A DNA stretch of 64,000 nt from Antechinus flavipes (Eukaryota). Below the pieces are notes generated by a model. That model was not told the origin of the DNA and made no database searches. It was given only the letters and a program-made list of their open reading frames with translations. The DNA lies in assembly GCF_016432865.1 (NCBI RefSeq), contig NC_067403.1, forward strand, positions 245,272,001 through 245,336,000. The letters are read 5' to 3'. How positions within the stretch are numbered: position 1 is the first letter of the stretch; every line of letters starts with the position of its first letter. Both the position numbers and the translations under genes were made by a program. Below are positions 4,151-63,702 of the stretch, in pieces.

Positions 4151-4154
4151 TCAT

Positions 4155-5760
4155 TTGAAGTCCAATGAAATTTGACAAATGATTGTAACCCATTACAAAT
4201 CTTTAAGACATCTGTCTTTTATCCATGTTGTAGTAGACATCTTGTCAGGATTCACTTTTGCAATACCAGCAGCAAAAGAGACAGCCTGAGTGGTCACTGA
4301 ATTCCTTATACAAGCATTTGCAATTATGCGTGTGCTACAAGCAATAAAAACAGATAATTGACCTGCATATTCTTCCAAACATTTCTCACACTTTTGTGCA
4401 CAGCATCAGATCTCAGCCACTACTGGCATACCCTTCAAACTTGAGGGACAAGCAATAGTATTGAGGAGGAATAGACATGAAGACGCTCTTCCAAAAACAA
4501 AAGAAAGGGGGAGCCACAGGTAATTCTGGAGATGAGAATGCACTGGCTGCAGCAGACAAGATTCATAACCCACAGGAAGGACAGCGTCCAGTGCAAGCAG
4601 CTCCAATACATTTAAATAATCACCAGGTCATGTGGAGAGATCCTGAGAGCCATTAATGGAAGGGACCAAACAGGCTAATCACTTAGGCAGAGGATTTGTT
4701 TGTGCCTCTACAGATGGAGAAGGAATGAAGGAATCTGATGGGTGCCCATGCACCATATCTGCCTTATCCATCAGAGAGATGGAAAAAGAGAAGACACTGG
4801 AAACGAAGGTGAGGATCCAATGGTTGGTTCCCTTTCTAACTACACCCACTACCAAAAGTGCATGGCAGTTACCAATGTATATGGCAACTGACTTATACAT
4901 ATTACCATGACCAGAAAAGTAATTGTGAATGAGATGGATACAGGTCTTCAAACCCTGCAAGAATCATTGAATTCCCTCGCACATGAAGTGATGGGTAATA
5001 GATGGGCTTTGGACTGTCTCTTGGCTGCTGAAGGAGGTGTATGTGTAGTTGTGAATTCCTCTTGTTGTATGTATATAAATAACTCATAGCAGGTGACCAC
5101 AAATATACACTACCTACATGAGGAGGTTCAGTGGATGAGAGACTCAAGACAATAGTTATTTTCTATACCTTTCTTCTGGGACTCATGAAAGTCTTTTATA
5201 GCACCTTGTTTACCATATTACATGTTATATTACTACTTGCCTATGTGATTCCCCCCATGTTAAAACTTATTAAAACTTAAAATCATTTTAATGGTTTTAA
5301 TCACTGTTGAATACCTGCTTCAATTAACACAAAAAGAAAGAGAAAGATGCGGAGGGCCACAGAGAGTGGGAACCCTGGGCAAAGTGTAAGACCCTTTAGT
5401 CCAGTAATTAGACTGTGGAGGTTTGCCTTCCCATGCATACTAGGGGCATTTTGGTTGTCCTGAAAAGTCAGGGGGTGTGACAACCTGTGTTGTACTTGAA
5501 GCAGAGTCATGCTAATATGGCAAGGAAACATGTGCACACAATAGCAAATTGTTTATGTGGTCCCACTTGAGCAGTATTCTATAGTTATGTATTATGTAAA
5601 CATAGGGTATATAAAGCTGAGGATTTTTTTTTTTTTAATAAAGGGACTCCTGCTTAACTTCTGTCTCATCACTCCTTACCCAAGATCAGGCCTCAGGCTG
5701 GTACTGAAGTCCTCCTAGGGGCTGGCACTAAAGTTCTCCTGTGAGCAGATTCAGACATTA
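4155..5760 (+). mobile_element. Degraded ERV 3' half: beta-type integrase (4155-~4809), gamma-type env TM remnant (~4907-5120), PPT (5331-5347), LTR (5348-~5760)
   Basis: Integrase is colinear with the provirus pol at 49670-50370 but has stops and frameshifts. TM remnant reads NRWALDCLLAAEGGVCVVVNSSCC (immunosuppressive domain plus CX6CC). AATAAA 5637-5642. Confidence 0.85.
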
Positions 5761-11638: not shown

Positions 11639-12562
11639 ATGCCAGAGGAAAATCTCACATATGTGAAGGAATTCATTCTCCTAGGATTTTCTGACCTGCC
11701 CAATCTTCAAGGTTTTCTATTTGGAATATTCTCTGTCATCTACCTAAGTATACAGTTAGGAAATGGCCTCCTCATTGTTCTAATCAAGACAGATCCAGCT
11801 CTCCATACCCCTATGTATTTTTTCTTAGGGAACTTTTCCTTTTTGGAAATGTGTTACACATCAGTCACTCTGCCCAGAATGCTGGCAGATCTCTGGACCC
11901 AGAAGAGAACTATTTCCTTCCTGGCCTGTGCTGTACAAACTGGTTTCTTTTATATTTTTGGAGTGGCTGAGTGTCTTCTCCTAACTGTAATGGCTTATGA
12001 CCGTTATGTGGCAATCACTAAACCTCTCAATTATACTCTCATTATGAATCACAAAGTATGTGTCCAGCTGGTTGTGGCTTCTTGGCTGACTGGGGTCCCA
12101 GTCTTGATAGGTGAGACGTACCAGATTTTTTCTATCAACTTCTGTGGCCCTAACAAAATAAATCATGTTTTCTGTGATGCCCCACCTTTATTCCCATTAG
12201 CATGTACAAACACATATAATATAGAGGTCTCTGTCCATGTTGTGGCTCTACTCTTTGTTACAATTCCCTTTGTTTTGATACTTGCTTCCTATATCAAAAT
12301 CATTACTACAATAATGAAATTGCCCTCCACCTCAGGGAAATCCAAAGCCTTCTCCACTTGTTCTTCTCACCTAATGGTTGTTTGCTTTTTCTATGGGTCT
12401 GGAAGTATTGTGTATTTGCAGCCAAAATCCAGACAATCATCAGGATCCAGCAAAATGCTTGGTCTTTTCTACAATACTGTGACCCCAATGTTTAACCCCA
12501 TCATCTACAGTCTGAGAAATAAGGATGTCATTGCTGCACTGAGAAAACTACTTCCTAATTGA
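11639..12562 (+). CDS. OR10AG1-like: Olfactory receptor, OR10AG1-like (copy B), 307 aa, intact
   Basis: N-glycosylation site NLT, LHTPMYFFL, MAYDRYVAI, KAFSTCSSHL, PMFNPIIYSLRNKDV; close overall resemblance to the OR10AG1 family as recalled. Confidence 0.95.
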   Translation: MPEENLTYVKEFILLGFSDLPNLQGFLFGIFSVIYLSIQLGNGLLIVLIKTDPALHTPMYFFLGNFSFLEMCYTSVTLPRMLADLWTQKRTISFLACAVQTGFFYIFGVAECLLLTVMAYDRYVAITKPLNYTLIMNHKVCVQLVVASWLTGVPVLIGETYQIFSINFCGPNKINHVFCDAPPLFPLACTNTYNIEVSVHVVALLFVTIPFVLILASYIKIITTIMKLPSTSGKSKAFSTCSSHLMVVCFFYGSGSIVYLQPKSRQSSGSSKMLGLFYNTVTPMFNPIIYSLRNKDVIAALRKLLPN

Positions 12563-16567: not shown

Positions 16568-17106
16568 TGTTATGCCACAGTTTTCTTTAACTGTCTTGAC
16601 TCAGTTTCCCTGTCTCAGTTTCCTTAACTGTTCTATCTCTGACCCAGTAAAACTAAGGATTATTCGCTCTAGGGTTATGAATTAGCAAGATAAAAGAGTA
16701 GATCTCCTGACTCTTTTACGGATTTACAATATCCCTTAAAATATTCCAAGATAACCTACGATATCTTTACTTCTTTGTCTCTGGATATTTTAGAGTTTTA
16801 TGGCTTCCCCTCCCTGATAAAAACTTTCCCTCCCTTTCTCTTCTTTGTCTCCAAAAAAGTATTTAAGAAGTTGGGGTTCCTCCATTCATGGCTGGAGAAT
16901 GGCATCTGGCAGCTGGATGCTGGACGCTGGATTCTTTGGGTCCTCCAGCCCTGGGACCAATATGGATTCCTTGGTCCCAGTATACTTATCTCTGTCTGAC
17001 TGGATAATCTGAGACGAGAGTCCTGTCCAGTCAATCTTACTCTCCCATTAATAAAATATTAAAAACTCTCTAATCTCTCTCCTACCTCAGTTTCTCTGGC
17101 ATTACA
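16568..17106 (+). repeat. 5' LTR of the Gln-PBS ERV
   Basis: TGTTATGCC...GCATTACA; AATAAA near 17050; direct repeat of 21242-21776. Confidence 0.9.
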
Positions 17107-21241: not shown

Positions 21242-21776
21242 TGTTATGCCACAGTTTTCTTTAACTGTCCTGACTCAGTTTCCCTGTCTCAGTTTCCTTA
21301 ACTGTTCTATCTCTGACCCAGTAAAACTAAGGATTATTCGCTCTAGGGTTATGAATTAGCAAGATAAAAGAGTAGATCTCCTGACTCTTTTACGGATTTA
21401 CAATATCCCTTAAAATATTCCAAGATAACCCACGATATCTTTACTTCTTTGTCTCTGGATTTTTTAGAGTTTTATGGCTTCCCCTCCCTGATAAAAACTT
21501 TCCCTCCCTTTCTCTTCTTTGTCTCCAAAAAGGTATTTAAGAAGTTGGGGTTCCTCCATTCATGGCTGGAGAATGGCATCTGGCAGCTGGATGCTGGACG
21601 CTGGATTCTTGGGTCCTCCAGCCCTGGGACCAATATGGATTCCTTGGTCCCAGTATACTTATCTCTGTCTGACTGGATAATCTGAGACGAGAGTCCTGTC
21701 CAGTCAATCTTACTCTCCCATTAATAAAATATTAAAACTCTAATCTCTCTCCTGCCTCAGTTTCTCCGGCATTACA
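21242..21776 (+). repeat. 3' LTR of the Gln-PBS ERV
   Basis: Direct repeat of 16568-17106. Confidence 0.9.
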
Positions 21777-22785
21777 CCTATGCTCCCTCCAGGGAAAAAC
21801 TCTCGTGATTTAAGATTTAATGCTTTATGGCAAATGGACATCACCTATGTTAAGAGGCATAGCATCTATGTGACTATGGATATACATTCTCAATTCCTCA
21901 TGGCTTCAGTCCAATCTCAAGAAGCATTTAGGCATGTGATCAGTCATCTCTGTCATTATTTTTCCATTGTAGCGTCCCACATGCACTTAAGAGAGGTAAT
22001 GGACCAGCTTACACATCTGCTTTTAGGTCCTTTTGCTTTGAATTTGGCATTGCCCATTCCACCAGCATCCCATATAAACTTACTGGTCAAGCCATTATTG
22101 GACAGACTATTTGTACCCTCAAGATGCTCCTGTCTAAACAAGAAAAGGGTATGTTAGGATTTGCACAACTCTTTACAGGACTCAAGCAGGCTTACTTAGA
22201 TGCAGCAATGTGTACATACAATTGCCTGCAATTTTCATATTCTGTGGATCTTACCTCAGCAATGCACTTCTGGCACACGCAGAGAGCATGGCTAACTAAC
22301 AGTATGGCCAACAAGGACAAGAAACCTCTTTCGACAGTGATGTGGAAGGGCTTAGATGGCATCTGGAAGGGCCCAGGTTGAGTCAAGGTTTGGGGGCCCA
22401 AGTATGCTCTTGTCCCAGAAGCAGAGGAGTGGATCCCAACAAGAAACCTCTATGACCTGGGAAAACAAGAAGGACTAGATGATGAATGCATTGCTGACAA
22501 CAATGCCCCGCAAAATCAGCCAGATGTCAACAGCCCTTCAGATGCTAATGGCAACCATGTCCCTCCTGACTGTGATACCAGAGACAGCAGATGCAGCACC
22601 AGTGTAGCAGCTGAATTGGACTGTCCTGGGTGATGTGCAACACCTGGAGACTGACAGAACTGGACAATGGGCTTGTGTGCTTCTCCCATGACTACCTGTT
22701 ATTCATATGGTAGTCTGATAGGCTTTGCCCTGTTTTCCAATTATTGACAATGCCTCTAAATTAGTGGGTGAAAAATCAACACGCC

Positions 22786-23286
22786 TGTAATTGGCTGAGG
22801 CTTGAGTTGATGCACTGAAGTCCCAAGCATGTGAGGCTAAATAGTAATTGGACCATACTCTATTAATATATAAGCTTGGAGAAAGAATAGCCCCTGCCCA
22901 CTCTTTGTGCAAGTCCTGATGTGTTGTATAGGAAATGACATTTTTGGTGGGTGGAGGCAGGGGAGTGGAAAGGGAAGCAGAAGGAGACTGCTGGCTGGTA
23001 TCTTGTCACAGCTGCTCGCTTTGCTATTGTGACTACCCTTGACCTCCAATCCCCCTCTGTTAGCTGACTTCCTGTCTGCCCATATTGCTATTGCAATCCT
23101 TCTTCACTTCTACTGAGAATAAAGATTGAAGAATTTCCCCTTAACCTGAATTCCTGACTCTGGCTGATTTTAAATACACGGTTATCACATCTCCAAGCAT
23201 ATATATTAATAGAGTATGGTCCAATTACTATTTAGCCTCACATGCTTGGAACCTCAGTGCATCAACTCAAGCCTCAGCCCATTACA
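22786..23286 (+). mobile_element. Solo LTR (22786-23189) fused to an inverted copy of its first 97 bp (23190-23286), flanked by TSD CACGCC
   Basis: TGTAA...TATCACA with AATAAA at 23118-23123; arms 22786-22882 and 23190-23286 are inverted with 4 mismatches in 97 bp; CACGCC at 22780-22785 and 23287-23292. Confidence 0.88.
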
Positions 23287-23383: not shown

Positions 23384-23575
23384 CAGGGGTCTTCAAACTA
23401 CGGCCCGCAGGCTAGATACAGCAGCTGAGGATGTTTATCCCCCTCACCCAGGGCTATGAAATTTCTTTATTTAAAGGCCCACAAAACAAAGTTTTTGTTT
23501 TTACTATAGTCCGGCCCTCCAACAGTCTGAGGGACAGTGAACTGGCCCCCTATTTAAAAAGTTTGAGGACCCCTG
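23384..23575. mobile_element. Non-autonomous hAT DNA transposon, OposCharlie1/OC1-like MITE, 192 bp
   Basis: 16-bp TIRs CAGGGGTC(T/C)TCAAACT at both ends followed by ACGGCCCGC; the 8-bp TSD is only partly preserved (GTGTATAC / GATCATAT). Confidence 0.85.
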
Positions 23576-28910: not shown

Positions 28911-29834
28911 ATGCCGGAAGAAAATCTCACAAATGTGAAGGAATTCATTCTACTGGGATTTTCTAATTTGCCCAATCTCCAAGGATTTCTATTTGGGATA
29001 TTCTCTGTCATCTACATAAGTATACTGTTAGGAAATGGCCTCCTTCTTTTTATAATCAAGATTGATCAAGCTCTTCATACCCCTATGTATTTCTTCCTGG
29101 GGAACTTTTCCTTTTTGGAAATATGTTACACATCAGTCACTTTGCCCAGAATGTTGGCAGATCTCTGGACCCAGAAGAGAACTATTTCCTTCCTGGCCTG
29201 TGCTGTGCAAACTTTTTGTCTTTATATTTGTGGAGGAGCTGAGTGCCTTCTCCTGACTGTGATGGCTTATGACCGTTATGTGGCAATCACTAAGCCTCTC
29301 TATTATACTCTCATCATGAATCACAAAGTGTGTGTCCAATTGGTTGTGGCTTCCTGGCTGACTGGGGTTCCAATTATGATTGGTCAGACATATCAGATTT
29401 TCTCTTTAAACTTTTGTGGTCCTAAAATAATCAATCATGTTTTTTGTGATGCCCCACCTTTATTCCCATTAGCATGTACAAACACATATAACATAGAGGT
29501 TTCTGTCCATGTTGTGGCTCTACTCTTTGTCACAATTCCCTTTGTTTTGATACTTGCCTCCTATATCAAAATCATAACTACAATAATGAAATTGCCCTCC
29601 ACCTCAGGGAGATCCAAAGCCTTCTCTACTTGTTCCTCTCACTTAATGGTTGTGTGCTTTTTCTATGGGTCTGGAAGTATTGTATATTTGCAGCCAAAAT
29701 CGAGTCAATCATCAGCATCTAGCAAAGTACTTGCTCTTTTCTACACTATTGTCACCCCAATGTTTAACCCCCTAATCTACAGTCTGAGAAATAAGGATGT
29801 CATTGCTGCACTGAGAAAACTACTTCCTAAATGA
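28911..29834 (+). CDS. OR10AG1-like: Olfactory receptor, OR10AG1-like (copy A'), 307 aa, intact
   Basis: All class II OR motifs; near-identical to copy A over the visible half. Confidence 0.95.
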   Translation: MPEENLTNVKEFILLGFSNLPNLQGFLFGIFSVIYISILLGNGLLLFIIKIDQALHTPMYFFLGNFSFLEICYTSVTLPRMLADLWTQKRTISFLACAVQTFCLYICGGAECLLLTVMAYDRYVAITKPLYYTLIMNHKVCVQLVVASWLTGVPIMIGQTYQIFSLNFCGPKIINHVFCDAPPLFPLACTNTYNIEVSVHVVALLFVTIPFVLILASYIKIITTIMKLPSTSGRSKAFSTCSSHLMVVCFFYGSGSIVYLQPKSSQSSASSKVLALFYTIVTPMFNPLIYSLRNKDVIAALRKLLPK

Positions 29835-35355: not shown

Positions 35356-36279
35356 ATGCCAGAGGAAAATCTCACTTATGTGAAGGAATTCATTCTCCTG
35401 GGATTTTCTGACCTGCCCAATCTCCAAGGTTTTCTATTTGGAATATTCTCTGCCATCTACCTAAGTATACAGATAGGAAATGGCCTTCTCATTGTTCTAA
35501 CCAAGACTGATCCAGCTCTCCATACCCCTATGTATTTTTTCTTAGGGAACTTTTCCTTTTTGGAAATGTGTTACACATCAGTCACTCTGCCCAGAATACT
35601 GGCAGATCTCTGGACGCAGAAGAGAACTATTTCCTTCCTGGCCTGTGCTGTACAAACTTGTTTCCTTTATATTTTTGGAGTGGCTGAATGCCTTCTCCTG
35701 ACTGTGATGGCTTATGACCGGTATGTGGCAATCACTAAGCCTCTCTATTATACTCTCATTATGAATCACAAAGTATGTGTCCAACTGGTTGTGGCTTCTT
35801 GGCTGACTGGGGTCCCAGTCTTGATAGGGGAGACATACCTGATTTTTTCTCTCAACTTCTGTGGCCCTAACAAAATAAATCACGTTTTCTGTGATGCCCC
35901 ACCTTTATTCCCATTAGCATGTACAAACACATATAATATAGAGGTCTCTGTCCATGTTGCGGCTCTACTCTTTGTTACAATTCCCTTTGTTTTGATACTT
36001 GCTTCCTATATCAAAATCATAACTACAATAATGAAATTGCCCTCCACCTCAGGGAGATCCAAAGCCTTCTCTACTTGTTCTTCTCACTTAATGGTTGTTT
36101 GCTTTTTCTATGGGTCTGGAAGTATTGTGTATTTGCAGCCAAAATCCAGACAATCATCAGGGTCCAGCAAAATGCTTGGTCTTTTCTACAATACTGTGAC
36201 CCCAGTGTTTAACCCCCTCATCTACAGTCTGAGAAATAAGGATGTCATTGCTGCATTGAGAAAACTACTTCCTAAGTGA
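35356..36279 (+). CDS. OR10AG1-like: Olfactory receptor, OR10AG1-like (copy B'), 307 aa, intact
   Basis: All class II OR motifs; acceptor TTTTCACAG|G at 35338-35339. Confidence 0.95.
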   Translation: MPEENLTYVKEFILLGFSDLPNLQGFLFGIFSAIYLSIQIGNGLLIVLTKTDPALHTPMYFFLGNFSFLEMCYTSVTLPRILADLWTQKRTISFLACAVQTCFLYIFGVAECLLLTVMAYDRYVAITKPLYYTLIMNHKVCVQLVVASWLTGVPVLIGETYLIFSLNFCGPNKINHVFCDAPPLFPLACTNTYNIEVSVHVAALLFVTIPFVLILASYIKIITTIMKLPSTSGRSKAFSTCSSHLMVVCFFYGSGSIVYLQPKSRQSSGSSKMLGLFYNTVTPVFNPLIYSLRNKDVIAALRKLLPK

Positions 36280-43823: not shown

Positions 43824-44747
43824 ATGACAGGAGATAATTTCACAGTTGTGGGGGAATTCATTCTCCTGGGATTTTCTGATCTTCCCAACCTCCAAGGGTT
43901 TCTCTTTGGCATTTTCTCTGTCATCTACCTATGTATATTGATAGGAAATGGCCTCCTCGTTGTCATAATCAAGATTGAGCCAAGTCTCCAAACACCAATG
44001 TATTTTTTCCTAGGGAACTTTTCCTTCTTGGAAATCTGTTACACAGCAGTCACTATACCCAGAATGCTGGTAGATCTTTGGACTCAGAAGAGCACTATTT
44101 CTTTCCTACACTGTGCTTTACAAACTTGTTTCCTCTATATTCTGGGAGTGGCAGAGTGCTTGCTCTTGGCAGTGATGGCATATGACCGTTATGTGGCCAT
44201 CTGTAAGCCTCTCTACTATCCTCTCATCATGAACCGTAGGGTATGTATCCAACTGGTTGTGATGGCCTGGATGATTGCGGTTCCAGTACTGATAGGGGAG
44301 ACATACCTAATTTTCTGTCTCAATTTTTGTGGTCCTAAAAAAATTAATCATGTTTTTTGTGAGGCTCCACCATTACTGGAGTTGGCCTGTGGGGACACAT
44401 ATAAGGCAGAGGTCTCTGTCCAACTTGTTGCATTGCTATTTATCATAACTCCCTTTCTGTTGATACTCACATCCTATGTCAAAATCATAATTACTATCCT
44501 GAGGCTGTCTTCAACCTCAGGGAGATCTAAAGCCTTTTCCACCTGCTCATCACACCTCATGATTGTGTGCTTATTCTATGGGTCTGGTAGTATTGTGTAT
44601 TTGAGGCCAAAATCCCATCACTCTACAGGCTCAGTCAAAGTGTTTGCTCTTTTCTATACCACTGTGACCCCAGTATTCAACCCTTTGATATATAGCCTCA
44701 GAAATAAGGATGTCATTGTTGCTTTGAGAAAACTGTTTCCTAAGTGA
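43824..44747 (+). CDS. OR10AG1-like: Olfactory receptor, OR10AG1-like (copy C), 307 aa, intact
   Basis: True ATG at 43824, 12 nt after acceptor TTTCTGCAG|G (43810-43811); MAYDRYVAIC, KAFSTCSSHL, NPLIYSLRNKDV. Confidence 0.95.
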   Translation: MTGDNFTVVGEFILLGFSDLPNLQGFLFGIFSVIYLCILIGNGLLVVIIKIEPSLQTPMYFFLGNFSFLEICYTAVTIPRMLVDLWTQKSTISFLHCALQTCFLYILGVAECLLLAVMAYDRYVAICKPLYYPLIMNRRVCIQLVVMAWMIAVPVLIGETYLIFCLNFCGPKKINHVFCEAPPLLELACGDTYKAEVSVQLVALLFIITPFLLILTSYVKIIITILRLSSTSGRSKAFSTCSSHLMIVCLFYGSGSIVYLRPKSHHSTGSVKVFALFYTTVTPVFNPLIYSLRNKDVIVALRKLFPK

Positions 44748-45599: not shown

Positions 45600-46176
45600 N
45601 NNNNNNNNNNNNNNNNNNNNNNNNNNNNNNNNNNNNNNNNNNNNNNNNNNNNNNNNNNNNNNNNNNNNNNNNNNNNNNNNNNNNNNNNNNNNNNNNNNNN
45701 NNNNNNNNNNNNNNNNNNNNNNNNNNNNNNNNNNNNNNNNNNNNNNNNNNNNNNNNNNNNNNNNNNNNNNNNNNNNNNNNNNNNNNNNNNNNNNNNNNNN
45801 NNNNNNNNNNNNNNNNNNNNNNNNNNNNNNNNNNNNNNNNNNNNNNNNNNNNNNNNNNNNNNNNNNNNNNNNNNNNNNNNNNNNNNNNNNNNNNNNNNNN
45901 NNNNNNNNNNNNNNNNNNNNNNNNNNNNNNNNNNNNNNNNNNNNNNNNNNNNNNNNNNNNNNNNNNNNNNNNNNNNNNNNNNNNNNNNNNNNNNNNNNNN
46001 NNNNNNNNNNNNNNNNNNNNNNNNNNNNNNNNNNNNNNNNNNNNNNNNNNNNNNNNNNNNNNNNNNNNNNNNNNNNNNNNNNNNNNNNNNNNNNNNNNNN
46101 NNNNNNNNNNNNNNNNNNNNNNNNNNNNNNNNNNNNNNNNNNNNNNNNNNNNNNNNNNNNNNNNNNNNNNNNNNNN
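45600..46176. other. Assembly gap (N run); further gaps at 46961-47172, 55270-55400 and 57753-57884
   Basis: Runs of N. Confidence 0.99.
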
Positions 46177-46399: not shown

Positions 46400-47905
46400 C
46401 TATTTATCTATCTACCATCTGTTTGCCTATCTCCAAATATGTGCATGCATGTATATGTATTAAGAAGTAGAGAAAAATATAAATGTGCTATAATAAAATA
46501 AGGAATCTGGAAGATTTTTTAAATTTTATGTCCTATCAATCTCATATCAGGAGAGTATGTGGAGTTGAGATTATTTTATGTTTTTAGATCAAAAATATGC
46601 AACATATAAAACAATGATATGAAATCTAATTATATATGTAAATGTGTATGACTACAATTCACTTATACATATCCCATATGTATATGTGTGTATATAGCAC
46701 AGACATGTATACCTTAAAAAATATACATGGAGAGTTTAGAGGCAGCCACAGTGGTCCAGTAGATAGAAAGCCATGCTTGGAATGAGATAACTCATCTTTT
46801 GTAGTTCAAATCCAGCCTCAGACATTTACTAACTCTGTGACTCTAAGTAAATCTTTAACTCAATTTTTCAATTTCTTTATAATGAGAACTAGAAAAGGAA
46901 TATCAAACACTTCAGCGTCTTTACCAAGAAAATTCAAGGTAGTGGAGAATTAATTTGAACNNNNNNNNNNNNNNNNNNNNNNNNNNNNNNNNNNNNNNNN
47001 NNNNNNNNNNNNNNNNNNNNNNNNNNNNNNNNNNNNNNNNNNNNNNNNNNNNNNNNNNNNNNNNNNNNNNNNNNNNNNNNNNNNNNNNNNNNNNNNNNNN
47101 NNNNNNNNNNNNNNNNNNNNNNNNNNNNNNNNNNNNNNNNNNNNNNNNNNNNNNNNNNNNNNNNNNNNNNNNGTTTTCTCTAAAATATTTAGCCATATGA
47201 ATATATATACATTCATATATGTGTTTATGTTTATATAATATATGATACATATATAGATATACCTATATATAGTATACATATACATGCATTCAGATAGGTT
47301 GGTTGGTAGGTAGATGGTAGATACTGTTGTTCCATTATTCAATTGTTGTGGACTCTTTGTAACCCCATGGATTTGAGGATTTCTTGGAAAGGATTTCTCC
47401 TGTGTGTATACATATTTGGACCTAAGTCAAATAATGTGTATGTGATTTACCCAGGAAAATAGAATTAGTAAGTGACTGAGATCAAATATGAATTCAGATC
47501 ATCCATTTCTGGACTTGGCACACAATTCACTATATCACATAGCTGACAAAAATAGATATATGCAGGGCACATGTGTGTATACTCACATATGCAATTATAT
47601 ACATATGCATGTGTGTCAACATAAATGCATATTATAGATGCATATATACTGCATATATATTTTACACTGATATTTATGGTTATGTTTGAGTAATTATAAA
47701 TAATATAAATTGCACATATATTCATATATAGTATATACCTTGTGTTACCTGTATAGTATATTACATATATAGTACATTTTATATATTATTTAACATATAA
47801 TGTGAGAATATAAAAATGGAAATGCATTTAAGTATATATATACATACATATACGAATAAACTATATGTAACACAATACACAGTTAATTTATATCTGGATG
47901 GATAA

Positions 47906-48340: not shown

Positions 48341-48739
48341 GCTGATATGAAAATAACCTTCAATGAAAAGTTATATCATTGCTTTATAAATTTTTTTTAA
48401 AACCTACAAAAATATTAGCTGTTATTAAGATCTGTTCTGAACTCATAGATATAAACTATACTTCTTTTTTTTCCCTTGTCCTCAATAATCCCCAAAATCT
48501 CCACCCCATAAGCAATATTTTTGCTTAGGTAGTAGAGTTTGAATAACTGGCAGTTTTGTGAGTGTCTATGACTGTAGGTGATGGACTTTTTCCTATGTTT
48601 GATCTCCCTATAGTGATTCTCAAGGAGTAATTGGCACATTGTTAGCTTTTGAAATACATTATTAAGTATAAGAAAATGTCACCTAAAACATGCCCTGCAT
48701 CTACTAATTTACTAATTACCAAAAAAAAGATTAGTTATT

Positions 48740-49338
48740 TGTTAGAGTTCAAATGTTGGAGTTTGTTCTTCTCAGGGCACAGCCGGTTTAGAGGCTTAGA
48801 GCCCTTCGGATGTCTCCAAATCCAAAGGTTCTGTCCTTCAGCCTCTGCCTCTGCCTTCTTCTGCCTCCAACAGAGATGGAAGATCTCTCTTATCTCCTTC
48901 TGGGGGGCCCAGGCACCAATTTGCCGCGGAGAGAGGGCTTCTGGCGTAGCTCCACTGAAGTCTGTCAAAAGTGTTCTCTGCAGCAGAGTCGTTTCTCTCG
49001 AGTCTAGCGCGATCAGCCAGCCAAGAGGAAAAAATGTATTCTGCCATAGATCCTTCATCGCTGGCTTTTTATCTGCCTCTTCTGAGAGAATGGGATTATG
49101 GGTTTTCTCCCATAGTGCTCTCTGGCCCAATGACTTTAAGGGAGGTGTGAACTCTCTTGAAGTTAGAAAGTGTACTTTGTGAAGCTAGCATACTTGTGGA
49201 GTCCAATGAGTAAAGGTGGGAACACAAGCCTTGTCTTGATTAGTTCTACTTAGTACCTTGTTTCAGGTTCTGGCCAAAACAACTTCTTGTAAGATTAGAT
49301 CAACTCTAATTACTTAGCAGTTAGTAAGGATTCCAACA
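48740..49338 (-). repeat. 3' LTR of the young provirus
   Basis: TG...CA; preceded on the sense strand by PPT AAAAGAAAGGGGGAGA (49354-49339). Confidence 0.97.
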
Positions 49339-49617
49339 TCTCCCCCTTTCTTTTGTTTTAAAACATAGGGGGTTTCTGAGGGGGTACACATAAATCCATC
49401 AATATGGGCCAGAACTTTGTAACAGATATACATGGTATACATAAATCCATCAATATGGGAGGCATTATACATAATTTACATGAGCACATAGCAATATAAC
49501 ACAGGCTAGTAGTAATGTAACAAATAACAAGAATCAATCTGAAAATTTACACATGTCCATAAGTCCTAGAAACAGTCCAATAGGATTCCATTGTCCATTA
49601 GTTCATGTGCCAGGAAT

Positions 49618-52281
49618 CTAATAATTCTTATGAGCACAATCAGCAACAGAACCACCCGATATTTCTTGGGTCTTCTCCTTTGTTTCAAGGGTCTGCTCCA
49701 TCTTTCTGCGATGGACAAGGCGAATGCGGCTCGTAGGCACCCATCTGATTCCTTCTCCACCTGTAGAGATGCAAGCAAATCCTCTCCCCCAAGCAGTTAG
49801 TCTATCTGGTCCCTTCCATTCACCACTTTCTGGGTCTCTCCACATCACCTGGCGATTATCTAAAGATAGTGGAGCTGCTCGCACTGGACACTGCTCTTCT
49901 GGTGGGTTATAAAACCTGTCTGCTGGAGCCAGTGCATCTTTATCAAAGATTAAAAAATTAATGGTATAGAGAACTAAATTTAGAAGTTCTCTAGGGTTAC
50001 CCGTGGCTCCTCCTTTCTTTTGTTTTTGGAGGAGTGTCTTAATGTCTCTGTTTCTTCTTTCTACTATTGCTTGACCTTGAGGATTGAAGGGTATGCCAGT
50101 AGTGTGTAGAATCTTATATTGTGCACAAAAGTGTTCAAAATGTTTGGAGGTATATGCCGGTCCATTATCTGTTTTTATTTCTTGTGGCACACCCATAATG
50201 GCGAATGCTTGAATGAGGAATTCAGTGACCACTCGGGCTGTCTCTTTTGCTGCTGGTATGGCAAAAGTGAATCCTGAAAAGGTGTCTACCACAACGTGGA
50301 TAAAAGACAGACGACCAAAAGATTTATAATGAGTCACATCCATTTGCCAGATTTCATTGGGTTTCAAACCACGAGGGTTCTTCCCTGGAGGCAGTGTAGG
50401 AGCATGGAAGGGAAGGCAAGCTGTACAGCTTTTCACTATGCTCCTAGCTTCTTCTTTTGTAATCCCAAACTGTAAACGCAAAGCTCGAGCAGCCTGATGG
50501 TATTTAGAATGGGATTCCTGAGCCTCCTGAAATAAAGGCGTACTGGCCAACATAGTTAAAAGGCTATCTGCCTTTGAATTTCCATCAAAAATAGGACCTG
50601 GAAGTCCACTATGTGAATGGACATGCAGGATATAAATCTTTCCTGGATGCTTTCTCACTTGCTCTTGAAGTTCCTTAAAGAGCTGATATATATTAGAAGC
50701 TGCAAATTTTATTTGGGCTGTGGCAATTCTTTGTACCACACCTACTGAATAGGCTGAATCAGATATTATATTTATGTCGCCTGGGTAATAAGTGAGAGCT
50801 AGCATGATCGCATATAATTCGTTCTGCTGAGTGGACTGAAAAGGAGTTCTGACTACTCTTTTTACGGTTAGATCATGAGAGTATACAGCACAAATATTTT
50901 GTTTGGCTGCGTCTGTAAAGATGGTTGGTCCTTCAAGAGGAACCTTAGAAACCTTCTCCTCAAAAATCCATTGCCAATTATGCAGTAGTCTGGTTATCTT
51001 TAATGGAGATCCATGTGCAAAATTTGGAGCCATGGCCAATAAAATCTGCCACTCTGGGATGGTTTCACAGCATACATTAATTTGTGCATTTGTATAGAAG
51101 GTATATATCTTGTCAGGTCTTGTCCCAGATAATTGTACTGCTCGCTTAATGGCCTTTAATAGAATTCTAGCCACAAGCACTGGGTAAGGCGTAAGGCTTT
51201 GTTCTGGTTGTGCTGGGAGGTTCACCCACTCTATCACACTGTCTCCTTGATGAAGGACTGCTGTGGGTGCTTCTTTTGTAGCAAAAACTGATATTTCCAA
51301 GGGTTTTTGAGTTACTCTCTCAACTACATTGGATAAAGCCAGTTCAACTTCTCTCAAGGTCTCTTGAGCTTCTTTTGTAAGCCGGCGTGGTGAATTTAAA
51401 GCAGTGTCTCCCCTTAAAATGTCATATAGGGGTTGCAATTGATTGGTAGTTAAACCTAATACTGGACGCATCCATTGGATATCTCCTATTAATTTTTGGA
51501 AATCATTTAAGGTGTTCAACCTCTCTGTTCTTAAAGACAGTTTTTGTAGTGTAAGTGCCTTAGGATATATTTCATATCCTAAATATTGAAAAGGAGCATG
51601 TCTTTGAATTTTTTCTGTAGCGATATGAAGTTTGTAGTATCTTAGTGTTTCTATGGTTTTTTGTAGACATGCTTCTAGAATTTGTTCCTCCGGTGCACAT
51701 CCCAAAATATCATCCATATAATGTAATAGCATAACTTTTGGAAATGCTTTTCTTATTGGAGCAAGAGCAGCAGCAACATACATTTGACACATAGTGGGGC
51801 TGTTCTTCATACCCTGTGGCAAAACCGTCCATTCATATCTTTTATAAGGCTCAGCTAAATTGACACTGGGCACCGAAAAGGCAAATCTCTTCATATCCTC
51901 CTTATCCAGAGGAATGGAATAGAAACAATCCTTGATGTCTATAACCCAAAGAGGCCATTCTCTAGGAAGCTGAGTAGGAGATGGAAGTCCAGGCTGAAGA
52001 GTTCCCATAGTTTCCATCTGTTCGTTCACTTTTCTTAAATCAGTGAGCATCCTCCATTTTCCCGATTTCTTTTTTACAACGAACACTGGGGAATTCCAAG
52101 GACTTAGAGAAGGTTGTAAATGCCCTTGTTCAAGCTGCTCCTGTATTATATCTAATAAGGCCTGAATTTTATCGCTACTTAAGGGCCACTGTTCTATCCA
52201 CACTGGTGTATCAGTTTTCCATTGGATAGGAATAGGTGAAAGTGTTGGCAGGCCTTCAACAGCAGCCCTGCTTAAAAAACC
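49618..52281 (-). CDS. pol: Pol (reverse transcriptase, RNase H, integrase), about 887 aa from the predicted frameshift, open
   Basis: LPQGMKNSPT and YMDD; RNase H IFTDA / NELYA / SDSAY; integrase HHCC zinc finger and D-D-E (WQMDVTH, KTDNGPAY, VERRN). Confidence 0.97.
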   Translation of the reverse strand, partial: GFLSRAAVEGLPTLSPIPIQWKTDTPVWIEQWPLSSDKIQALLDIIQEQLEQGHLQPSLSPWNSPVFVVKKKSGKWRMLTDLRKVNEQMETMGTLQPGLPSPTQLPREWPLWVIDIKDCFYSIPLDKEDMKRFAFSVPSVNLAEPYKRYEWTVLPQGMKNSPTMCQMYVAAALAPIRKAFPKVMLLHYMDDILGCAPEEQILEACLQKTIETLRYYKLHIATEKIQRHAPFQYLGYEIYPKALTLQKLSLRTERLNTLNDFQKLIGDIQWMRPVLGLTTNQLQPLYDILRGDTALNSPRRLTKEAQETLREVELALSNVVERVTQKPLEISVFATKEAPTAVLHQGDSVIEWVNLPAQPEQSLTPYPVLVARILLKAIKRAVQLSGTRPDKIYTFYTNAQINVCCETIPEWQILLAMAPNFAHGSPLKITRLLHNWQWIFEEKVSKVPLEGPTIFTDAAKQNICAVYSHDLTVKRVVRTPFQSTQQNELYAIMLALTYYPGDINIISDSAYSVGVVQRIATAQIKFAASNIYQLFKELQEQVRKHPGKIYILHVHSHSGLPGPIFDGNSKADSLLTMLASTPLFQEAQESHSKYHQAARALRLQFGITKEEARSIVKSCTACLPFHAPTLPPGKNPRGLKPNEIWQMDVTHYKSFGRLSFIHVVVDTFSGFTFAIPAAKETARVVTEFLIQAFAIMGVPQEIKTDNGPAYTSKHFEHFCAQYKILHTTGIPFNPQGQAIVERRNRDIKTLLQKQKKGGATGNPRELLNLVLYTINFLIFDKDALAPADRFYNPPEEQCPVRAAPLSLDNRQVMWRDPESGEWKGPDRLTAWGRGFACISTGGEGIRWVPTSRIRLVHRRKMEQTLETKEKTQEISGGSVADCAHKNY

Positions 52282-53137
52282 GAAGTACTCATTTTTAACC
52301 CCAATTGTTGTAAAACGTCTCTTCCCACAGATTGATGGGGATTTTTTCAACTATAAAAGGAGTAAAAACTCCTGTTTTGCCTTCAAAAGTCCATCTCATA
52401 GGGGCAGCACTAACTTCAGCTGCTATTGATCCTCCTACTCCAGACATATAGGTATCTGCTTTAATCTTTGGCCAGTGACTGGGCCAACTGGCACCTCTAA
52501 TAACTGTACGATCCGCACCTGTGTCTACCAATCCTTCCAATGGTAGGCCATTTATATAGATAGTGAGCATAGGTCGGTCAGCCGTTACTGCTGCTGTCCA
52601 GTATATTTCTGGTTTTTGTGGTCTGGAGTCAGAACCTGGGTGACTATCACGAGGCTGCTTATTAGGATTCTGTATGAGTAACCCTGATGCTACTACGTCT
52701 CCTGGGTGATAAGTCACACATTGACTACCTGTATTAGTGACTGGGATATTATCTACACATTCCCCAGTTTCCCACATCAGTGTGTGGATGGACACTGTTT
52801 TGTACATACAAGAAGGTGAAATGGTCAAGCCTACTGTGCCTGGAGGTAAGGGATCCATAGGCTGGAGAGGAACAGATTTCACCTCTCCAGGGGGTATCTC
52901 AGTTGTCCCAGCTGCATATAGCTCTATTCTCCCCAATTGTAATTCCCTTCTGCCATCAGGTTGCTTCCTGGCTGGTTGACTGTGTAATCCCCTTCTCCCA
53001 TCGTATGGCTTTCTGGCTGATTGGTCATGTCTGGGTACTGGACTTCTAGGCACTCTCTGGGTGCACCATTGGCTGCCATCATGCCCCAAGTATTTTTTGC
53101 CTTGGGCCCTGGGGCTGGGCCCCTCATCCCGTTTCCC
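52272..53137 (-). pseudogene. pro: Pro (degenerate dUTPase-like domain plus aspartic protease) with a 1-bp deletion near the C-terminus
   Basis: LVDTGAD active site. Restoring one G at 52324-52326 gives INLWGRDVLQQLGLKMSTSVF*; as assembled it stops at 52295. Confidence 0.9.
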
Positions 53138-53784
53138 TGAATCTGTCTGCATTCTGAGGCCCAATGGAAGCCTCTGTTGCATTTTGGACATGGGGTTTGG
53201 GGTCTTGTTCTCCCACCTTGTCTTCCCATTCTATCTCTATACCAACATTGAGCTTTCAGATGTCCTACTTTTCCACACTGAAAGCATCTACGAGTCTCTC
53301 TGGAAGTCCCTTGCCAAGAGGGATTCTGTCTTCTCATGTTTGGATTTTGGGAAGTCTGCATCATAGCCTGGCTATAAAAGGCACCTGTGTCCACTGTGGC
53401 ACAGCGTCTTATGAGTTCCTCTAAAGGAGCATCCTTGCGCAGTCCTAGTATAATTCTTCTGCAAACCTCATTAGCATTTTCCTTAGCAAGTTGCCTTATC
53501 AAGATGTCTGTTATTGCATTTTCTCCATTTGTTCTTATGATAGCTGTCTGCAAGCGTCCCACAAAGTCAGCGAAGGGTTCATTTGGCCCTTGTGTTATTT
53601 TTGTGAAGGCCCCCCCTTTGTCGTCTTTATTGTGAAGAGAAGCCCACGCTTTGATACAAGTTACAAGTAGCCCTTGATCTTCTATCAGCTTAAGCAGGCT
53701 TTCTATAGCACCACTCCTGGGTGGGTCTGGGGTTGGGGGGGTTGGGGTGGGGGATGGAGAATCTTTACCTAGGATCTGTCCCAT
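52924..53784 (-). CDS. gag: Internally deleted Gag, 286 aa (MA N-terminus fused to CA C-terminal domain, NC)
   Basis: MGQ myristoylation-type start; MHR ITQGPNEPFADFVGRL; two CX2CX4HX4C knuckles (CFQCGKVGHLKAQC, CPKCNRGFHWASEC). Confidence 0.93.
   Translation of the reverse strand: MGQILGKDSPSPTPTPPTPDPPRSGAIESLLKLIEDQGLLVTCIKAWASLHNKDDKGGAFTKITQGPNEPFADFVGRLQTAIIRTNGENAITDILIRQLAKENANEVCRRIILGLRKDAPLEELIRRCATVDTGAFYSQAMMQTSQNPNMRRQNPSWQGTSRETRRCFQCGKVGHLKAQCWYRDRMGRQGGRTRPQTPCPKCNRGFHWASECRQIQGNGMRGPAPGPKAKNTWGMMAANGAPRECLEVQYPDMTNQPESHTMGEGDYTVNQPGSNLMAEGNYNWGE
53083..53137 (-). promoter_or_regulatory. gag-pro -1 ribosomal frameshift signal (G GGA AAC plus H-type pseudoknot)
   Basis: GGGAAAC, spacer, then GGGCCC-A-GCCCCA-GGGCCC...UGGGGC, the same layout as the SRV-1/MPMV gag-pro signal; the -1 frame is the pro ORF. 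Confidence 0.88.
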
Positions 53785-53847
53785 TTTAGCCAAAAAAGGT
53801 TGTACTCACTCAGTTCCTGGTCACTGGAGACTTCTTGTGAAAGTAGG

Positions 53848-53865
53848 GTCCCTGTTCGGGCGCCA
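53848..53865 (-). promoter_or_regulatory. Primer-binding site, tRNA-Lys3(UUU)
   Basis: TGGCGCCCGAACAGGGAC, an exact 18-mer located 3 nt inside the 5' LTR boundary. Confidence 0.95.
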
Positions 53866-53868
53866 AAA

Positions 53869-54467
53869 TGTTAGAGTTCAAATGTTGGAGTTTGTTCTTC
53901 TCAGGGCACAGCCGGTTTAGAGGCTTAGAGCCCTTCGGATGTCTCCAAATCCAAAGGTTCTGTCCTTCAGCCTCTGCCTCTGCCTTCTTCTGCCTCCAAC
54001 AGAGATGGAAGATCTCTCTTATCTCCTTCTGGGGGGCCCAGGCACCAATTTGCCGCGGAGAGAGGGCTTCTGGCGTAGCTCCACTGAAGTCTGTCAAAAG
54101 TGTTCTCTGCAGCAGAGTCGTTTCTCTCGAGTCTAGCGCGATCAGCCAGCCAAGAGGAAAAAATGTATTCTGCCATAGATCCTTCATCGCTGGCTTTTTA
54201 TCTGCCTCTTCTGAGAGAATGGGATTATGGGTTTTCTCCCATAGTGCTCTCTGGCCCAATGACTTTAAGGGAGGTGTGAACTCTCTTGAAGTTAGAAAGT
54301 GTACTTTGTGAAGCTAGCATACTTGTGGAGTCCAATGAGTAAAGGTGGGAACACAAGCCTTGTCTTGATTAGTTCTACTTAGTACCTTGTTTCAGGTTCT
54401 GGCCAAAACAACTTCTTGTAAGATTAGATCAACTCTAATTACTTAGCAGTTAGTAAGGATTCCAACA
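53869..54467 (-). repeat. 5' LTR of the young provirus
   Basis: Identical by eye to 48740-49338; GATAAAAAG TATA-like element. Confidence 0.97.
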
Positions 54468-54991
54468 GTTATTAGAACCTTTTCCTAATATAACCATAAT
54501 TTTCTTTTGAAAATAGCACTTCTGTTTTGATACATTCATTAACTGCTCCTATAGTAGAAGTATACAGAAAATGTCATCTGCATCCAGAAAAAGATCTGAG
54601 ACTGAACATAAATCAACACATACTATGTTCACTTTTTTTTTTCTGTTTTTTAGTCTCCCAATTTTTTTTTCCTTTTGTTCTGATTTTTATCTCTCAACAT
54701 GTTTCATAAAGCAATGTGCATTAAAAATAAATTTACTACAATAAAAAGAATATAGTTACAAAGTAGAAGCAATAGAAATTTTAAAAGTCACATAAGAAAT
54801 TAAAATCAGAAATCAATGTTATAGTGTCTAGAATTAACTGTGTATACTCAACCATCCAAAGTACATGAAAAAAGAAAAAAGAAAAGAAAGAAGAATTTGC
54901 AGTTCTAAAGTAAGGAGCCAAATTGGAAATCTCAATATCTCAAACATTTGATGAAACAACCCCAATACTTAAACATGGCTCTATGAAAATA

Positions 54992-55028
<37 letters not shown>

Positions 55029-55806
55029 TTCTTGATCTAAGGAAACAGAATTGATAAAATGTTATAAATGCATTAAAATATAGAATCAAAATGAACAAGA
55101 CAAAGATATGTACATAATGGTAACTGGAGGAAAAAACACTTGAATTACTTGTCAATGGAATGCAATATAGATGAAATGGAAAGAAACAGAGAAAGTAATA
55201 CATTCAAAAGAGTTCATGATACTGGAAGAAAGATCAACTATATTAATACTAAAGAATTTCAATTTTCCANNNNNNNNNNNNNNNNNNNNNNNNNNNNNNN
55301 NNNNNNNNNNNNNNNNNNNNNNNNNNNNNNNNNNNNNNNNNNNNNNNNNNNNNNNNNNNNNNNNNNNNNNNNNNNNNNNNNNNNNNNNNNNNNNNNNNNN
55401 CTTTTGCTCTCTTGCTCTCTTTGTATATGTGTGTATCTATTTCTCTGTATTTATAAGCTAGTCTTTGATCTTTGTCTCTCAGTTTCCTTTTCTCACTCTG
55501 TCTCTACCTGTTTGTCTATTCTTGTATGTCTATCTTTGTTTTTGGGTGCATCTATGTTTTTCTCAGACTCTGTTTCTCTCTGCCTATCCTTCTCCCCTTT
55601 CCTACAGTGACAGAAAAGCTCAAAAGATAATAAAATAAAATGTGATACAACCAAAGCTTAAAGGAATGATGGACATTGATCTCAGGCCCAAAAACAATTG
55701 TAGAAGAGTTTAAAATATTCTAAATGTCAAAGAAACTAGATAGAGTGAAATTTGGAAAATAAATTGATGTGAGAGAATTATGGAAAAAAAGTCAATGGTG
55801 AAGGAG

Positions 55807-57229: not shown

Positions 57230-58250
57230 TTTTTTTTCTGATGAAGTTCTATGCATTTTCTTCTACTTATTTTTTTTTCATTTTTTAGTTTTGTTTGATG
57301 AATTCTTTTCTCATTAAGTCATTTACTTCCATTTGTTCAATTCTAATTTTCAGTGAATCATTTCTTTGAGTTCGCTTTTTGTTACCTCCTTTCCCATTTC
57401 AGCAACTGAAATTTTAAATGAATTGTTTTGCTCACTGTTTTTTTGTTTTTCCCATTTCAAGAATTCTAATTTTAGGGTGTTTCTCTCATTTTCCATTTCA
57501 CCAAGTCTTTTTTTCAAAGAAATATCTTATCTTTCCATATCATGAAATCCATTTTAAAGGACTGGAAAGTGTGTTTCCTTTTCCAAACCTCTTAATTCCT
57601 TTCTCCATTTTTACTCTCCCTTTTAAGATCTTTTTTGATTTTTTTTTCCAATACAGCCTTTGGAATTTGAAAGCAGCTCATATAATCCTTTGAGGCTTCT
57701 GCTGAATGTGAGTTTCAGGTCAATTTTTCCTTGTCTCCATAACAGTTATCAGNNNNNNNNNNNNNNNNNNNNNNNNNNNNNNNNNNNNNNNNNNNNNNNN
57801 NNNNNNNNNNNNNNNNNNNNNNNNNNNNNNNNNNNNNNNNNNNNNNNNNNNNNNNNNNNNNNNNNNNNNNNNNNNNNNNNNNNNGTTGATATGTGGTTTT
57901 AAGGCAAAGGAGAAAATTATTCCAGGCTTCTTCCATACAAAACAATGGCTTCACAGTGCCCTGGGGCAGTGCTGCTAACTGCTTTCTTATGCTGGATGTG
58001 TGTGACCAAGTCCCATCTTTTTTGGTGGGGTTTAAGGGCTCATTATTTGCCTTCTATACTTGTACTGGATGTCTCACAGCTAGTCTCTTGATACACTAGC
58101 TTCTGAACCAGAATAGAATAGTCAGTGCTACTTTATTTTGGCTAAGAAACTCCCTGTAGATTTTCCTCACAAGTGGAGGCCTCTCCACCCTGGGCTTCCC
58201 AGTGCTGCCTCCCTGACTGTTGAATTGAGAAAAGCCTTTCCTGAAATTGT
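57230..58250 (-). mobile_element. Degraded LINE-1 ORF1/5' region (spans a gap)
   Basis: T-rich plus strand (A-rich sense strand) resembling the marsupial L1 ORF1 coiled-coil region; recognised by pattern only. Confidence 0.5.
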
Positions 58251-62778: not shown

Positions 62779-63702
62779 ATGGCAAAGGACAATCTCACAG
62801 TTGTGGAGGGATTCATTCTTCTGGGATTTTCTGATCTTCCCAACCTCCAAGGGTTTCTCTTTGGCATTTTCTCTGTCATCTACCTATGTATATTGATAGG
62901 AAATGGCCTCCTCATTGTCATAACCAAGATTGATCCAAGTCTCCAAACACCAATGTATTTTTTCTTGGGGAATTTTTCCTTCTTGGAAATCTGTTACACA
63001 TCAGTCACTATACCCAGAATGCTGGTAGATCTTTGGACACAAAAGAGCACTATTTCTTTCCTACGCTGTGCTGTACAAACCTGTTTCCTCTATATTCTGG
63101 GAGTGGCAGAATGCTTGCTCCTTGCAGTGATGGCATATGATCGTTATGTGGCCATTTGTAAGCCTCTCTACTATCCTCTCATCATGAATCGTAGAGTATG
63201 TATCCAATTGGTTGTGTTGTCCTGGATGATTGCGGTTCCGGTACTGATAGGGGAGACATACCTGATTTTCTGTCTCAATTTTTGTGGTTCTAAAAAACTT
63301 AATCATGTTTTTTGTGAGGCTCCACCATTACTGGAGTTGGCCTGTGGGGACACATATAAGGCCCAGCTCTCTGTCCAACTTGTTGCATTGTTGTTTATCA
63401 TAACTCCCTTTCTGTTGATACTCACATCCTATGTCAAAATCATAATTACTATCCTGAGACTGCCTTCAACCTCAGGGAGATCCAAAGCCTTTTCCACCTG
63501 CTCATCACATCTTATAATTGTGTGTTTATTCTATGGTTCTGGTAGTATTGTGTATTTGAGGCCAAAATCCCATCATTCTACAGGATCAGTCAAGGTGTTT
63601 GCTCTTTTCTATACCACTGTGACCCCAGTATTTAACCCCTTGATATATAGCCTCAGAAATAAGGATGTCATTGCTGCTCTGAGAAAACTGCTTCCTAAGT
63701 GA
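62779..63702 (+). CDS. OR10AG1-like: Olfactory receptor, OR10AG1-like (copy C'), 307 aa, intact
   Basis: True ATG at 62779, 16 nt after acceptor TTTTTCTATAG|G (62761-62762); all OR motifs present. Confidence 0.95.
   Translation: MAKDNLTVVEGFILLGFSDLPNLQGFLFGIFSVIYLCILIGNGLLIVITKIDPSLQTPMYFFLGNFSFLEICYTSVTIPRMLVDLWTQKSTISFLRCAVQTCFLYILGVAECLLLAVMAYDRYVAICKPLYYPLIMNRRVCIQLVVLSWMIAVPVLIGETYLIFCLNFCGSKKLNHVFCEAPPLLELACGDTYKAQLSVQLVALLFIITPFLLILTSYVKIIITILRLPSTSGRSKAFSTCSSHLIIVCLFYGSGSIVYLRPKSHHSTGSVKVFALFYTTVTPVFNPLIYSLRNKDVIAALRKLLPK

Follow-up and report, generated by a model that had tools for sequence, protein, structure and literature searches.

How does a provirus without env, and with a gag too short to encode a complete Gag protein, come to be a young insertion in a genome? 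The question is raised by an endogenous betaretrovirus on the minus strand of a 64-kb stretch of contig NC_067403.1 (64,000 nt; hereafter the window), where it occupies positions 48740-54467 (5728 nt). A preliminary description of the locus had inferred that the element was very recently copied in trans by a complete relative, and that an active helper-dependent lineage must therefore exist. Our analysis favors, with a probability of about 0.55, a young non-autonomous copy of marsupial endogenous betaretrovirus 3 (MEBrv3), carrying long terminal repeats (LTRs) and a primer-binding site (PBS) of its own subfamily, whose already defective RNA would have been mobilized in trans by an intact MEBrv3.

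Directly seen at the locus are integrase-made ends (TG...CA termini and a 6-bp target-site duplication, TSD), identical LTRs, intact cis signals, a broken Gag and Pro, and an open Pol (Table 1). The exact LTR alignment called for by the preliminary description matched 599/599 bases, with the identity stopping at the LTR edges on both sides. The perfect GTTATT duplication and the intact polypurine tract (PPT) that it had listed are likewise present; a 6-base flank match is expected by chance with a probability of 7e-4 at the flank composition. Its exact Lys3 site agrees at 18/18 bases with the sequence that we take to be the tRNA-Lys3 PBS, the tRNA label itself being an assumption. The many CpGs it had noted amount to 74 in 5728 nt, with observed/expected ratios of 0.31 in the LTR and 0.26 in the interior versus 0.10 and 0.06 in the 5-kb flanks, or about three times the flanks; the integrase region holds 12 CpGs in 703 nt, compared with 4 in 667 nt in an old relative within the window. 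The 599-nt LTR has no second copy elsewhere in the window. Its sense strand (53869-54467) contains neither AATAAA, ATTAAA nor TATA; GATAAAA (54202) is a promoter candidate, and AATACA (54169) could serve as the poly-A signal.

The pol frame is open over 910 codons from stop to stop, and the 887-aa Pol of the preliminary description measures 886 aa from the slip site. No stop occurs in 2658 nt, where 5% of substitutions would create one. Pfam recognizes RVT_1, RVT_thumb, RNase_H, Integrase_Zn, rve, and IN_DBD_C, and the catalytic motifs of reverse transcriptase (RT), RNase H, and integrase (IN) were located, including YMDD and WGRG. The best sequence matches in PDB were 7sr6 (E 1.6e-150), 7usf (3.1e-75), and 3jca (7.8e-74), with 7sep ranking second, all three above the HIV entries (best HIV-1 RT, 6.6e-58). 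We take 7sr6, labeled "Polymerase", to be HERV-K (HML-2) RT, and 7usf and 3jca, labeled "Integrase", to be mouse mammary tumor virus (MMTV) integrase. These matches place RT and IN closest to betaretroviruses (class II), as had been proposed; a tRNA-Lys PBS, two CCHC knuckles, and a 6-bp TSD, all found here, are also betaretrovirus-like features.

Within class II, the coding region can be assigned by its sequence to MEBrv3, an env-less dasyurid lineage resembling intracisternal A-type particles (IAPs) and represented by dvERV6989 (7305 nt) (Harding et al. 2024; PMC11334065). By a hand count, 749/808 Pol residues (92.7%) equal those of MEBrv3 Pol, leaving 59 differences, and the first 102 annotated Pol codons differ from the representative by about 20 silent changes and one replacement. 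For comparison, MEBrv3 copies were clustered at >80% nucleotide identity or by mapping to the representative, and the nearest outside virus stands at 44.4% (PMC11334065). The two elements share a collinear gag-pro-pol, the same slip heptamers, an env remnant bearing an immunosuppressive domain (ISD), identical LTRs, and a dasyurid host, and MEBrv3 was indeed described with an ISD (PMC11334065). At the RT site, the representative in that paper's supplement has YVDD, and it lacks the integrase WGRG, so that the Pol of the window copy is the more canonical of the two. A kangaroo endogenous retrovirus (KERV), considered first, was abandoned when every Gag match with an organism name proved to be dasyurid and the element agreed with the MEBrv3 record, a decision made without comparing any KERV sequence. 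Because the coding region is that of MEBrv3, the main inference of the preliminary description is already in print: a young, class II, env-deficient, IAP-like element is supported here and had been published for this family, the "Type A (IAP)" label being itself a prediction (PMC11334065).

Outside the coding region, the resemblance ends. The LTR of the representative is 469 nt long versus 599 nt here and shows no resemblance by eye, and its PBS is Lys1,2-like rather than Lys3-type, both tRNA labels being our assumption. It also has a longer leader, a 3' region of about 1100 nt, and a gag longer by 312 codons, and the pro of the window copy is frameshifted. An LTR that by eye is of the representative's type occurs in the window at 22786-23189, and blastn found no match between it and the 599-nt LTR. 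By its sequence, then, the window copy is a member of the MEBrv3 clade, which is defined on coding sequence, and lies outside the LTR/PBS subfamily of the representative. Its deleted gag and frameshifted pro also depart from the intact gag-pro-pol of the autonomous MEBrv3 form. With its different LTR and its shortened gag, the copy may belong to a dependent subfamily not described before. The literature searched, PMC4408412 among it, revealed no MEBrv3 subfamily that is gag-deleted or Lys3-primed and no 599-nt LTR in this lineage, although Dfam, Repbase, or the GTF files of the original paper may already hold this LTR or locus; term searches of PMC13641905 and PMC12866920 gave no mention of MEBrv.

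The lesion in gag is an internal one. Gag is indeed only 286 aa long, as had been claimed, and keeps an N-terminal Met-Gly, the C-terminal domain of capsid (CA-CTD), and two CCHC zinc knuckles, with no Pfam match to matrix (MA) or to the N-terminal domain of capsid (CA-NTD). Residues 1-42 align with the N-terminus of the relative P0019 (31/42), and residues 43-133 align with the same protein from residue 354 on (83/91). Relative to P0019 (from these anchors) and to dvERV6989 (by eye), 312 codons are missing, equivalent to 936 nt in the latter. The deletion preserves the frame, takes most of MA, the linker region, and CA-NTD, and leaves 128 nt of 5' gag upstream. Comparison by eye with the representative revealed neither splice signals nor clear microhomology at the breakpoints, and a spliced origin of the junction was ruled out for want of a donor or acceptor. 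A peptide of about 15 aa is imperfectly repeated in tandem at the Gag C-terminus (52950-53030, minus strand), as it is in P0004, P0005, and the published Gag.

The second lesion, overlooked in the preliminary description, lies in pro. The aspartyl protease is clearly recognizable (Pfam RVP, E 1.3e-19); a three-frame translation shows a frame break near 52330, inside its C-terminal motif, after which Pro runs to a stop at 52295 without reaching the pro/pol slip heptamer (52279). Both candidate -1 heptamers are present, the pro/pol one being identical to that at the pro end in dvERV6989, and the break would shift the relation of the gag, pro, and pol frames in this copy. As assembled, the provirus is predicted to be unable to make a full protease or to reach Pol by the usual route, though its pol frame is open. 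Possibly, the break is a base-call error. Upstream in pro, the segment 52631-52936 resembles dUTPase clusters of the ESM Atlas (score 0.94, 202-204/256 features, recognition 2627) and has no Pfam or PDB match; the sole hit of the PDB sequence search, a Fab chain at E 0.45, was meaningless.

The absence of env holds only in part. No env open reading frame (ORF) lies between the pol stop and the 3' LTR, which are 279 nt apart versus about 1100 nt in the representative, and yet an ISD-like stub of the transmembrane subunit (TM) survives, agreeing at 48/66 nt (E 5e-6) with the ISD stretch that the old relative has near 4960. The frame at 49566-49796 was discarded as an env signal peptide, as it overlaps pol and ends in this stub. 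Just upstream of the PPT, a 20-nt direct repeat with a small palindromic core (49389-49408 and 49440-49459), of which the representative has one related copy by eye, is a possible cis element. A hairpin for RNA export of the constitutive transport element (CTE) type was ruled out for this region (z 0.11; 98/200 shuffles fold equally well).

How could such an RNA have been copied? In the reading that we prefer, a source provirus already lacking this part of gag would have been transcribed in a cell of the germ line or the early embryo, into an RNA that retained the leader along with 128 nt from the 5' end of gag, the region of betaretroviral packaging signals. An intact env-less MEBrv3 expressed alongside it in that cell would have provided the Gag, Pro, and Pol to package it, and reverse transcription and antisense integration between two OR10AG1-like olfactory receptor (OR) genes would have followed within the last ~1-2 million years (My). 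The Pro lesion strengthens the case for copying in trans, because such a copy, expressed in the normal way, could not supply functional Gag, Pro, or Pol. Helpers plausibly exist, since intact env-less MEBrv3 copies with identical LTRs have been reported from quoll, dunnart, and yellow-footed antechinus (PMC11334065). The retained 128 nt also match in size the packaging need of MMTV, which comprises the 5' untranslated region and about 120 nt of gag (PMC3473059). The switch to dependence would itself be recent, as the mark of purifying selection left by a replicating ancestor is still visible in Pol. Copying by a complete relative, as first proposed, is thus the likeliest route, with a deletion arising during reverse transcription as its possible substitute.

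Several observations weigh against this reading. The gag junction is shared by none of the 24 Gag relatives compared (3 longer proteins and 21 of similar length; 13/24 carry an organism name, in every case Sarcophilus or Sminthopsis); its two anchors, never close together, are nearest in P0008 (residues 17 and 95). Nor is it apparent among the best 150 of 742 representatives (E up to 0.001), where the seven that reach at least 66% identity all have best stretches starting at query residue 38 or later. In a comparison aimed at relaxed selection, private residues in the retained Gag number 7/172 (4.1%), within the 0.8-22.6% found in the 24 relatives, a value compatible with either outcome. A deletion stays in frame by chance in one case out of three. 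A parent just one step removed from autonomy would explain an intact Pol as well as a dependent lineage would, and so clean a Pol argues against a dependent lineage of long standing. The leader is shorter than that of the representative and gave no signal of structure (z +1.59; 190/200 shuffles fold equally well), on which ground a structured leader was ruled out. No helper with the 599-nt LTR is present in the window, and an IAP/MusD-like intracellular lifestyle is a prediction from the loss of env, in an element whose Gag retains its N-terminal Met-Gly. The absence of the junction from the protein sets is weak evidence either way, since these hold few gene models of endogenous retroviruses. 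With one copy in the window and the junction missing from the proteins compared, the active helper-dependent lineage that had been claimed is a possibility rather than a finding.

Alternatively, the element may have been dead on arrival: an autonomous full-length MEBrv3 RNA, served by its own proteins, would have lost part of gag through a non-homologous template jump in that single round of reverse transcription; the pro frameshift would be either an error in the sequence or another slip of RT, and there would be no dependent lineage. A stop-free Pol under purifying selection, a junction devoid of splice signals and clear microhomology, and the failure of all 24 relatives to share it are what this scenario would produce. 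It requires, however, two lesions in one cycle, or one plus a base-call error, and the deletion spares a stretch equal in size to the packaging region in MMTV gag and keeps the frame, as expected of selection on a mobilizable RNA. We regard this course of events as unlikely, though it deserves to be taken seriously.

The remaining alternatives turn on the age and the assembly of the element. Zero differences in the 599-nt pair set a 95% upper age bound of 0.83, 1.1, or 2.1 My at rates of 3.0, 2.2, and 1.17e-9 per site per year, respectively, the latter two being background values. The first was derived from 5.95e-9 per generation and two-year generations (PMC11128018). The insertion is therefore young, and the "very recent" of the preliminary description reduces to an age under ~0.8-2.1 My, which need not mean a present-day insertion. 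Since the window assembly is gapped (four runs of N), collapse of the LTRs by the assembler is conceivable. The insertion could then be real but older or different, with both LTRs drawn from one consensus, an interior pieced together from near-identical copies, or a base-call error in pro. Runs of 131-577 N, presumably typical of short- or linked-read scaffolds, and the proneness to collapse of a 599-nt repeat from a high-copy family lend this some weight. Yet the element contains no N and has a perfect TSD; this duplication, the CpG content, and the open pol are signs of youth independent of the LTR pair, and identical-LTR copies of the same family were reported from the assemblies of the three dasyurids named above. 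An assembly effect is thus improbable. Decay in place, by which an intact provirus later lost 936 nt of gag and acquired the pro frameshift, is very improbable: while microhomology-free deletions do happen in chromosomal DNA and the age bound permits up to ~1-2 My, it would demand two indels alongside zero substitutions in 1198 LTR bases and no stop in pol.

If a defective MEBrv3 RNA was indeed mobilized in trans, it has counterparts in the mouse. According to excerpts of PMC6466679, IAP 1-delta-1 and ETn are non-autonomous and the source of most new insertions in that species; IAP 1-delta-1, like the window copy, belongs to the env-less class II elements, has lost an internal part while keeping an open frame, and needs gag and pol in trans. 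Its own traits, from the same excerpts, are a 1.9-kb gag-pol deletion, a Gag-Pol fusion acting in cis, and many copies, whereas the deletion in the window copy is confined to gag, making the latter an element that works like IAP 1-delta-1 without being a member. MusD/ETn is a further env-less betaretrovirus-derived retrotransposon with a non-autonomous partner (PMC6466679, excerpts). The window copy differs from such a partner in retaining the whole pol frame. ETn is largely non-coding. HERV-K (HML-2) and MMTV, in turn, have env, whereas the MEBrv3 lineage has lost it and carries a dUTPase-like segment without Pfam or PDB match. It is tempting to go one step further and picture an MEBrv3 subfamily that exchanged its LTR and primer tRNA (Lys1,2-like to Lys3) and is amplifying in a living dasyurid together with a multicopy non-autonomous partner, whose mini-Gag (N-terminal stub, CA-CTD, and nucleocapsid) would co-assemble with helper Gag and favor, in cis, the packaging of the RNA that encodes it. 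Such a pair would parallel IAP 1-delta-1 in a marsupial, with insertions segregating in populations. We consider this extended version doubtful.

Table 1. Features of the provirus and of its surroundings in the window
Feature	Position	Strand	Remarks
3' LTR	48740-49338	-	599 nt, TG...CA
5' LTR	53869-54467	-	599 nt
TSD, left copy (GTTATT)	48734-48739		from sequence and chance estimate
TSD, right copy (GTTATT)	54468-54473		from sequence
PBS, tRNA-Lys3 type	53848-53865	-	3 nt from 5' LTR; tRNA label assumed
PPT	49339-49354	-	16 purines adjoining 3' LTR
Leader	53785-53847	-	63 nt; shorter than in dvERV6989; GTGAGT donor-like motif retained
gag	52924-53784	-	286 aa; in-frame internal deletion at 53657/53656
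pro	52295-53137	-	degenerate dUTPase-like segment and aspartyl protease; frameshift near 52330
Candidate gag/pro -1 slip heptamer	53131-53137	-	from sequence; putative function
Candidate pro/pol -1 slip heptamer	52273-52279	-	not reached by the broken Pro frame; putative function
pol (RT, RNase H, IN)	49618-52278	-	stop-free, 886 aa from slip site
ISD-like stub of lost env TM	49565-49629	-	match to old relative near 4960
3' untranslated region with shrunken env remnant	49355-49617	-	holds 20-nt direct repeat
Assembly gaps (N)	45600-46176, 46961-47172, 55270-55400, 57753-57884		577, 212, 131, and 132 nt, around the provirus
Tandem OR10AG1-like cluster	2-562, 11639-12562, 28911-29834, 35356-36279, 43824-44747, 62779-63702	+	five intact, one cut by window edge
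Old degraded MEBrv3-like fragment	4154-5757	+	integrase region 75% identical to young copy
Solo LTR	21242-21776	+	3' end matches end of MEGrv1 record (PMC11334065 supplement), by eye
Integrase remnant from a more distantly related class II element, degraded	21777-22450	+	32-37% aa identity to young Pol; between LTRs 21242-21776 and 22786-23189
LTR resembling that of the MEBrv3 representative	22786-23189	+	by eye

The provirus is intergenic, lying 4 kb downstream of the OR gene at 43824 and antisense to the OR genes. The cluster has long duplicated flanks, and its members at 11639 and 35356 are 95% identical, the latter being identical to record P0055; no paralogous empty site was found in the duplicated units within the window. 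Among the 120 matches listed for the one OR searched (43824-44747, OR10AG1-like), identity reached 96% in Sarcophilus, 93% in Sminthopsis, and 91% in Antechinus, and at most 83% in non-dasyurids. A tree built from the five window ORs and 36 of these 120 matches places three window ORs with an Antechinus flavipes protein and two further rows (98/93), with the devil protein P0057 outside, and the OR at 43824 with devil and dunnart proteins; none of the five is identical to a named devil protein. Judged by these genes, the host is a dasyurid, though probably not the devil.

Other retroviral remains are scattered through the window. In the old fragment at 4154-5757, what is left of the env TM still shows the ISD and CX6CC (~4950-5085), and beyond a PPT lies a 3' LTR (~5350-5757), the third type in the window, with AATAAA near 5637. 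The LTR at 22786-23189 is directly followed by a 97-nt inverted copy of its own start (23190-23286, 96% complementary), a rearrangement. The start motif of the solo LTR at 21242-21776 is found again at 16568, so that the 16.5-21.8 kb interval may contain another copy or a larger element. Finally, an element of about 190 nt with short terminal inverted repeats (23386-23575) gives the impression of a miniature inverted-repeat transposable element, presumably of hAT type.

What, then, does the locus add? The family, the loss of env, copies with identical LTRs, and the comparison with IAPs are known already (PMC11334065), and one more defective MEBrv3 copy is ordinary. The possible addition is subfamily structure, as MEBrv3-type interiors come with three LTR types within this one window: the 599-nt LTR, the published type, and the old one at ~5350-5757. 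If the gag-deleted form were truly multicopy and polymorphic, it would give marsupials an autonomous/non-autonomous pair and a source of population markers, as well as a way to probe whether MEBrv3 continues to move in a family prone to cancer, as has been proposed (PMC11334065).

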